Assembly: GCA_022447545.1 (NCBI GenBank)
Contig: JAKVBI010000014.1
Location: forward strand, 34,336 to 98,335
DNA: 64,000 bases
Source of the DNA: Myxococcota bacterium
GTDB taxonomy: Bacteria; Myxococcota_A; UBA9160; SMWR01
Reading direction: 5' to 3'
Below the pieces are notes generated by a model. The model was not told the origin of the DNA and ran no database searches. It saw only the letters and a list, made by a program, of their open reading frames with translations. The translations under genes and the position numbers were made by a program. Of this stretch, positions 43,194 through 49,573 are shown in pieces (within the stretch, counting starts at the first letter, position 1; the number at the start of each line of letters is the position of its first letter).

Positions 43194-43586
43194 ATGGCTA
43201 TCGTCGATCCGGAGCGGAGACATATCGTCCTCTGGGACGGCGACTGAATTCCCTGAGGCCGAATCGCCGCCTGGGTCAGGCGGAAGGATCGGAACGGGCT
43301 GTTCGAAGTCGTTCCCTACCAGGCTGCTGCGTCGCCGCCCATGACGCCAGAGCTTCGGGATGCGTGTGCACGCTCGGCTCACGTTCTCACCCGCGATGGC
43401 AGAGTGCTGAACGGTGGGCGAGGAACTCTGTTCATCCTGCGACAATTGGGGTGGTGGGTGGGTTTTTTGAGCGTGCCTCCGTTGGTCTGGCCTGTGGAAG
43501 TGAGCTACGCGATCTTCGCTCGAAACCGTGTTTTCTTTTTTCGGCTTTTCGCGCGCTTCTTGCCACCCCGTGATCTGGACCGCTAG
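43194..43586 (+). CDS. DCC-family (DUF393) thiol-disulfide oxidoreductase homolog with two in-frame TGA codons at the CxxC positions (candidate UxxU selenoprotein)
   Basis: A single frame gives MAIVDPERRHIVLWDGD-TGA(43245)-IP-TGA(43254)-GRIAAWVRRKDRNGLFEVVPYQ...RGTLFILRQLGWW...YAIFARNRVFFF. There are no other stops. The ORF track splits it into the tail of 42366..43247 plus 43341..43586. A hairpin lies directly downstream. Confidence 0.6.
43259..43292 (+). promoter_or_regulatory. SECIS-like stem-loop downstream of the two in-frame UGAs
   Basis: Lower stem CCGA(A)UC/GAUCGG and upper stem CCGCCUG/CAGGCGG (43267-43283), with a G-G-U apical loop at 43274-43276. The upper stem begins 10 nt after the second UGA. 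Confidence 0.45.
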
Positions 43587-48427: not shown

Positions 48428-49573
48428 TCAGATGGGTTCGGGTTCACCTCGAGGAATATTCTGGAACTCGCGATGGATTTTCGTCACGCCTCTCCACAAC
48501 AGCACGGCCCAAGCGGTAAGGGCCAGAGCCACCCACCCCTTGGGAAGCAGGGCGAAGGCTCCGATCCAGATTCCTGCGAAAGCAAGGATGCGCGGGATCA
48601 TTCTGGCGGGGTGGGCGGGCGGCTTCTCATTGGCACGGCCGAGAGGGAAGGGTCTTGGTCTTAGGAACCAGCCGTGGGCCATGAGCATCAAGACGAAGAG
48701 GGACCAGGGAGGGGCCTGCTGGTCGAGTTCCGGGGCATCATCGAGTTCCGGTTCCTCGCAGTCTCTTTCGAGACGCGCCTGGATGTTTCGCCAAACGTGA
48801 CCTGGAGTGGGTCGCGATATGGCACCTCCCACGTTCTGACGAGTCGGGCGGCAGCGCCAGCGGTAGAGAACACGTCCTTCGGGGGTTAGCGCGAGGACGG
48901 CGGGTTGTAAGTATCCCTTGGGGTGTGAGGCCCATGAACGGAACTTCAGAAGTCCTTGGGACCGGCTTACGAACAGACTCAGCCAGCCGCGTTCTCGGCA
49001 GGTATCGATGATTTCGTGATGAGGGTCCCCGATACAGGAAAAACCGTGGCCCCACGCTTCCTCGGCCTCCGTTGCGAGGCTCTGGGGTTCGCTCGTGATT
49101 GCGTAGATTTCGCCACCGTCTCTTCGGATCTGGTCGACGACGCCTGATTTGCCATAGCCTCGCAACTCGAGGCGACAGGGAGGTCACCAGAATCCGCGAT
49201 AGAAGACGAGCACCGTGAATGCGTGCTTCTGTAATTGGTCGTCGAGCCAACCCTTTCTCACACCGGAGGGTGGGTCGAGTTCCGGAGGGATGCCGCCTTC
49301 CCCAAGTTTGGCCGAAGTGATACGGAATTCCTCACCCGTGATTTGAACGAGTACCTGCTCCCGGAGACAGATGTCCCCATCGCACAGCACCAATCCGAGT
49401 TCCATTTCTTGATCGGGATACGCATCCAAAGCCAGGTCGGCATTCACCAGTCCGGTCACCTCGAACTGTGCACCGCGCTTTTCGTTCACCCAAGCCAGGG
49501 CCGCTTCGGCAGCAGGCTTCAACTCGGGCGGAATCTCCGTGATGGCTTCCGGCACGTGGACCCCCGGGAACAA
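48428..49573 (-). CDS. PRX-like2 (AhpC/TSA-type) thioredoxin-fold protein with in-frame TGA in a UxxC motif, fused to a C-terminal membrane domain (candidate selenoprotein)
   Basis: ORFs 49184..49573 and 48428..49165 are in the same frame, joined by TGA 49186-49184: ...HAFTVLVFYRGFW-TGA-PPCRLELRGYGKSGV...ITSEPQS...GDPHHEII...LQPAVLALTPEGRVLY. The beta1 strand lies before the TGA and the rest of the fold after it. The C-terminus has 3 TM-like segments. Confidence 0.65.
49157..49173 (-). promoter_or_regulatory. SECIS-like hairpin 10 nt downstream of the in-frame UGA
   Basis: On the minus-strand RNA: GCCUCG-AGUUG-CGAGGC, a 6-bp stem with a 5-nt loop containing GU. The loop G/U sit about 21-22 nt from the U of UGA. 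Confidence 0.45.

Follow-up and report, generated by a model that had tools for sequence, protein, structure and literature searches.

A single short hairpin inside the coding sequence of a small oxidoreductase gene probably serves, as judged by comparison of its relatives, as the selenocysteine (Sec) insertion element of two UGA codons at once, both of which would be read as Sec to give a UxxU active site. The gene lies in the window (i.e. the whole stretch of 64,000 nt that was analysed) and very probably encodes, to go by its predicted translation, a DCC1-like oxidoreductase in which both redox Cys codons are UGA, that is a two-Sec protein. In the textbook account of bacteria, Sec is inserted only where a hairpin stands at a fixed, short interval from the UGA. 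It appears moderately likely that the 17-nt hairpin described here works at spacings of both 10 and 19 nt, specifying two Sec residues 9 nt apart and, in relatives of the UxxC form, acting on the 19-nt position alone. If true, such use of two spacings would overturn the fixed-spacing picture that derives from E. coli fdhF.

With TGA translated as Sec (U), both TGAs share one frame with the ATG and the TAG stop of the gene (Table 1), and they lie 9 nt apart within it, as a preliminary description of this DNA had claimed. The predicted protein reads MAIVDPERRHIVLWDGD-U-IP-U-GRIAAWVRRKDRNG... and the codon layout, UGA-N6-UGA, puts UxxU in the place of CxxC: the active site becomes U18-I-P-U21, with the motif D-U-I-P-U at the site of the family's DxxCxxC. 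The protein matches Pfam family PF04134 over residues 12-117 (E 9e-13, 49.9 bits against a cut-off of 27.8), and its ortholog in a relative genome (G002) has the same start and both TGAs. In an AlphaFold2 model (pLDDT 86, pTM 0.78) U18 and U21 are located at the N-terminus of a helix (residues 19-31), behind a strand (residues 10-14). A Foldseek search of the PDB with this model returned thioredoxin-fold proteins as weak matches (best E only 0.02), and a sequence search for a solved relative of the protein found none.

Table 1. Positions of the DCC gene, its codons and RNA structures, and of the other selenoprotein genes of the genome (window coordinates unless a C number is given)
Feature	Position	Strand	Remarks
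DCC1-like (DUF393) thiol-disulfide oxidoreductase gene	43194..43586	+	130 aa; ATG 43194, TAG 43584-43586; open throughout with TGA=U
UGA1	43245-43247	+	first Cys of CxxC; 19 nt before stem, 26 nt before apical loop
UGA2	43254-43256	+	second Cys of CxxC; 10 nt before stem, 17 nt before apical loop
Minimal SECIS hairpin (predicted)	43267..43283	+	17 nt, 7 bp; fold and covariation
Lower stem of the preliminary description	43259-43265 with 43287-43292 (43259..43292)	+	formable here; not conserved
Prx-like UxxC selenoprotein gene	48428-49573	-	UGA 49184-49186; ...FYRGFWUPPCRLE...
FdhA-like selenoprotein gene, two CMD/AhpD-like CxxU genes and UGSC family gene	C55 (~41.5-42.1 kb), C14, C57, C2	-, -, +, +	same genome

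Relatives were collected by a whole-genome search and then by querying genome and metagenome contigs with an alignment. The former recovered one ortholog of 71% identity with both TGAs and two of 46-50% identity with CGFC; the contig scans added 147 further loci, and a single-protein query gave no confirmed relative. The 123 distinct 84-nt slices around the motif comprise 94 CxxC, 24 UxxU and 5 CxxU forms, to which later look-ups added one UxxU form (L234), one CxxU form (L237) and two UxxC forms (L230 and L236). In total this makes 33 distinct Sec-type sequences (25 UxxU, 6 CxxU and 2 UxxC), all with the same hairpin in the same register; the relatives in these counts are not independent samples. 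The Sec forms stem from MAGs labelled Myxococcota, Armatimonadota, Chloroflexota and Planctomycetota, i.e. from at least four phyla, the closest relative being labelled Myxococcales bacterium. One UxxU DCC gene (L090, CAYTLW010000056.1) is found in an 8.1 Mb bin labelled 'uncultured Enterobacteriaceae bacterium', a label that looks doubtful. Both UGAs align with the CxxC of the 94 relatives, with which the gene has in common the signature PYQ...PPMTPEL...ARNR and the position of the DGxCxxC motif. At the first Cys position TGA occurs in the 25 UxxU and 2 UxxC forms, and TGC or TGT in the CxxU and CxxC relatives; at the second position the 29 aligned Sec forms have TGA without exception. A tree of 125 relatives was poorly resolved: it forces at least three Sec/Cys changes, the order of which could not be established because the protein is too short.

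The hairpin was found as the preliminary description had drawn it, with the 5' arm CCGCCUG (43267-43273), the loop GGU (43274-43276) and the 3' arm CAGGCGG (43277-43283), in a segment that codes for A-A-W-V-R-R. The covariation check proposed at that time came out in its favour, the hairpin being conserved in all 29 aligned Sec forms, in identical columns and with 0 indels. Of the cells in the upper stem 98% pair, compensatory changes are present at three of the seven pairs (e.g. CUGUCUG/CAGACAG in a low-GC Planctomycetota genome), and RNAalifold predicts the 7-bp stem as the sole structure. The loop is equally constant, with G at position 1 (29/29), G at position 2 (27/29) and U at position 3 (29/29). 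All seven pairs are formed in 25 of the 29 Sec forms, as against 1 of the 94 Cys forms (Fisher p = 7e-21, uncorrected for kinship). Moreover, among the third positions of the codons in the hairpin, C39, G42 and C45 never vary in the Sec forms and G48 is 97% conserved there, whereas all four vary in the Cys forms, and an A-to-G change in the hairpin replaces Arg by Gly and yet keeps a U-G pair. The third-position invariance and the pair-keeping Arg to Gly change thus point to selection on the RNA and, judged from the aligned sequences, such selection acts on the hairpin only in forms that carry a TGA. The single Cys form with a complete hairpin (GCCGCTTGGGTCAGGCGGC, AAWVRRRD) is a CGFC form on a metagenome contig (L132, Ga0134127_10285220); it looks like a recent Sec-to-Cys reversion with a SECIS relic.

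Folding of the region separates the hairpin from its surroundings. The 21-nt core hairpin has a predicted energy of -12.5 kcal/mol (z = -3.05) and was matched in stability by 0 of 200 shuffles, whereas the 61-nt stretch put forward in the preliminary description (-22.1 kcal/mol, z = -0.36) is no better than shuffled sequence, so that the expectation of a fold more stable than its shuffles held for the core and failed for the whole; a stretch of 146 nt likewise did no better than its shuffles. The long imperfect stem-loop with a lower stem that had been proposed could not be upheld: across the relatives only 42.5% of the cells in the lower-stem columns pair, native and swapped flanks do not differ in energy (p = 0.3-0.67), and the lower stem was rejected as part of the element. 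Because the lower stem is not conserved and the 61-nt fold resembles that of shuffles, the real element is taken to be the short upper hairpin and not a long stem-loop. A small alternative hairpin 10 nt after UGA1 (alignment columns 25-28 / 34-37) was discarded as well, its 64.7% pairing equalling that of shuffles with 0 covariation. Neither the lower stem nor the alternative hairpin being supported, we arrive at one element; a second conserved structure downstream of the UGAs was found nowhere among the aligned Sec forms, and an Rfam scan of the region gave nothing relevant. The earlier suggestion of one hairpin for both UGAs fits these alignments well, in that the sole conserved structure is common to the CxxU, UxxU and UxxC forms at the same register. 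The codon directly after the 3' arm (columns 52-54 of alignment A2, window 43284-43286) is AAR (Lys) in 19 of the 27 UGA1-bearing forms and in 0 of the 6 CxxU forms, uncorrected for phylogeny.

The hairpin also agrees with what is generally described for bacterial elements. In the Zhang and Gladyshev model, to the extent that it is summarised in PMC13188914, the bSECIS consensus has an upper stem of 4-16 bp that carries a 3-9 nt apical loop, a minimum free energy of at most -7.5 kcal/mol, a G at loop position 1 or 2 that usually precedes a G or U, and a distance of 16-37 nt between the UGA and the loop. Within these bounds lie the 3-nt GGU loop with its G, the 7-bp stem, the -12.5 kcal/mol and the 17 and 26 nt from the two UGAs to the loop.

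The two UGAs differ in their distance to the stem, and here the preliminary description, which had the spacers right (10 nt from UGA2 and 19 nt from UGA1), had drawn a parallel with fdhF that holds for UGA2 and does not for UGA1. For E. coli a limit of 11 nt between the UGA and the SECIS is stated (PMC11431864), a value that UGA2 nearly fits and that UGA1 exceeds by 8 nt. In five other selenoprotein genes of the genome the stem starts 10-13 nt and the loop 16-20 nt after the UGA; UGA2 is typical of this set, and UGA1 falls beyond the range observed in the genome, yet within the published 16-37 nt (PMC13188914). These five are the Prx-like UxxC gene of the window, in which the stem (GCCUCG, loop AGUUG) starts 10 nt after the UGA, and the FdhA-like, CMD/AhpD-like and UGSC genes, in which the apical loop contains a G and lies 18-20 nt beyond the UGA. 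The two CMD genes and the UGSC gene were picked by eye from genome-wide scans and confirmed with Pfam; the other hits of the two genome-wide Sec/UxxU gene scans were mostly antisense-frame noise and were discarded.

The longer spacing is put to a natural test by the two UxxC forms. L230, from a soil contig, reads W-D-G-G-TGA-GAT-ATG-TGC, and L236, from an Armatimonadota genome with a tRNA-Sec, reads Y-D-G-Y-TGA-GGG-TTC-TGC; in both, the identical hairpin follows in the identical register. The two are independent of each other, and their sole UGA has the 19-nt spacer. Such forms are rare (2/33 Sec forms), and the pattern was found in none of 401 genomes of the window's own phylum. Two proteins that had been suspected to be UxxC from their 'MC' start (P0044 and P0116) are plain CxxC.

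The genome (5.9 Mb, 94% complete) encodes selA, selB, selC and selD, with a tRNA-Sec that has the anticodon UCA and the discriminator G, and with a SelB that consists of the canonical domains only. On one contig, selA is separated from selD by about 12 kb (C23:145281-146405 and C23:158174-159097), selB is on C10 and selC on C2. ARAGORN reports one tRNA-SeC and one ordinary tRNA-Cys of 74 nt, and no second Sec-like tRNA with a UCA or GCA anticodon was found in the genome. A search with the tRNA-Sec model and ARAGORN, the only tools used for this purpose, found no tRNA-ReC-like gene in this genome (94% complete) or in 16 genomes with Sec forms, including 5 of Armatimonadota; those lower hits of the tRNA-Sec model that were checked (seven here, in addition to hits in ten Sec-form genomes) were identified by ARAGORN as ordinary tRNAs, mostly Ser/Leu. 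The presence of a tRNA-Sec separates the genomes poorly (13/16 with a Sec form versus 15/24 with a Cys form). ARAGORN also called a 96-nt tRNA-?(His|Ser) at C54:101782-101877, whose anticodon loop ('gtga') has 8 nt and whose acceptor stem contains an A.G mismatch; its anticodon is neither UCA nor GCA, and it probably represents a pseudo-tRNA or an erroneous call.

How one hairpin might act on both codons can be outlined as follows. By analogy with characterised bacterial systems, SelB-GTP-Sec-tRNASec would bind the GGU loop via its C-terminal winged-helix domains and deliver Sec to the UGA in the A-site. At UGA1 the hairpin would be 9 nt further off, no part of it would yet have entered the ribosome, and the additional unpaired spacer would presumably loop out. 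The ribosome would then advance three codons and a fresh SelB ternary complex would load on the still-intact hairpin, after which the 10-nt spacer at UGA2 would present the ordinary geometry of the organism. With both UGAs decoded as Sec, a UxxU selenol/diselenide active site would result at the N-terminus of helix 1. We infer the binding of SelB, the insertion of Sec (and not of another residue) at each codon and the double use of the hairpin. A point against a single SECIS is that the efficiency, low to begin with, should be multiplied down when SelB has to act twice in a row.

In one alternative only UGA2, with its canonical spacing, is read as Sec through the hairpin. UGA1 would then have another decoder, either a SelB-dependent tRNA-ReC (selC*) that inserts Cys or a near-cognate tRNA (read-through as Trp, Cys or Arg), and the product would be CxxU-like or mixed. 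The 19-nt spacer, which lies outside the 10-13 nt range of the genome and also breaks the E. coli 11-nt rule (PMC11431864), speaks for this explanation, as does the larger number of CxxU (6) than of UxxC (2) forms; in addition, tRNA-ReC is enriched in genomes with UXXU hydrogenases, for which decoding of one or both UGAs as Cys has been cautioned (PMC13582414). Nevertheless, we consider it unlikely. A tRNA-ReC-like gene was found neither in this genome nor in the 16 Sec-form genomes, near-cognate read-through leaves unexplained that TGA, never TAA or TAG, stands at the active-site Cys in 27 distinct sequences across phyla, and the two UxxC forms retain UGA1 alone together with the hairpin. Taken together, the comparative evidence favours one hairpin for both UGAs, as far as alignments can tell, over a UGA1 that is decoded differently, the alternative named in the preliminary description. 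In another alternative UGA1 is served by a second, unrecognised signal. This might be a protein factor, a sequence context that forms no helix, or a lineage-specific lower helix, by which a longer hairpin would come to stand about 11 nt after UGA1. The lower stem would here indeed begin 11 nt after UGA1, the stem can be extended in its own way in many relatives, and the codon that follows it is AAR in 19/27 UGA1 forms versus 0/6 CxxU forms. This possibility is quite unlikely all the same: the lower stem pairs in just 42.5% of cells and swapped flanks fold as well (p = 0.3-0.67), the hairpin in columns 25-28 / 34-37 is devoid of covariation, SelB carries no extra domain, and the association with AAR is uncorrected for phylogeny.

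A broken gene, in which translation stops at UGA1 or in which the protein actually made is the called one that lacks the N-terminus, is highly improbable. It would account for the called proteins P0003 and P0004, which start after the UGAs, and for 33 of the 120 best-ranking relatives of the protein collection (P0009-P0128), which are truncated likewise, their calls starting just after the UGA(s). Against this stand the frame and the WDGD...xxU motif, which are kept across the TGAs in 33 distinct sequences from many assemblies, the lack of the redox motif in a truncated product, and the confinement of RNA-level selection on the hairpin to TGA-bearing forms. From the truncated calls it follows that annotation pipelines systematically miss the redox motif of the DCC Sec family.

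UxxU genes are a natural test of the fixed-distance rule, a point that was left open for hydrogenases by a 2026 paper (PMC13582414), and the DCC family offers a clean test-bed, with a protein of 130 aa, a 17-nt hairpin without other conserved structure and natural CxxC, CxxU, UxxC and UxxU variants at one register. If our reading of one element for two UGAs is true, it also defines an uncatalogued, multi-phylum family of diselenide-capable DCC oxidoreductases: DCC/PF04134 is absent from the May 2026 catalogue of 119 selenoprotein families, the Sec form has no NCBIfam model, and a literature search on DUF393, PF04134 or DCC in combination with selenocysteine found no paper. The reach of a SECIS, once known, would moreover help the engineering of multi-Sec proteins in bacteria.

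UxxU motifs as such and the idea of a single SECIS have already been published for other families. UxxU is catalogued for Prx-like and 'Prx-like 2' proteins (GOS 2008, PMC2398784) and for the metal-binding protein NF041115 and the FmdB family (PMC13188914); these, too, are bacterial proteins with a thioredoxin fold or small, Cys-rich ones in which UxxU is a redox or metal-binding motif, and the families differ from DCC. With respect to the Cys-type PF04134 proteins, the gene described here differs in that both Cys are replaced by Sec codons and in that the embedded hairpin constrains A-A-W-V-R-R. Like fdhF and other bSECIS-containing genes it has an in-frame hairpin directly 3' of the UGA with a G-first loop, and the spacer of UGA2 is fdhF-like (~10-11 nt); unlike in those genes, the DCC element faces two UGAs, with UGA1 19 nt off, a conserved lower stem or bulge is lacking, and the binding of SelB is predicted. 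The closest parallel is formed by the Group 4 [NiFeSe] hydrogenases, for which a single SECIS was proposed in silico for both UGAs in September 2026 and in which tRNA-ReC is enriched among the genomes with UXXU forms (PMC13582414). There, too, a CxxC pair has turned into two UGAs 9 nt apart, and CXXU and UXXU variants share one predicted SECIS. In contrast to the hydrogenases, where the pair is a Ni ligand, that of DCC is a redox pair, no tRNA-ReC was found in the genomes searched here, and the UxxC forms share both the hairpin and its register with the other Sec forms.
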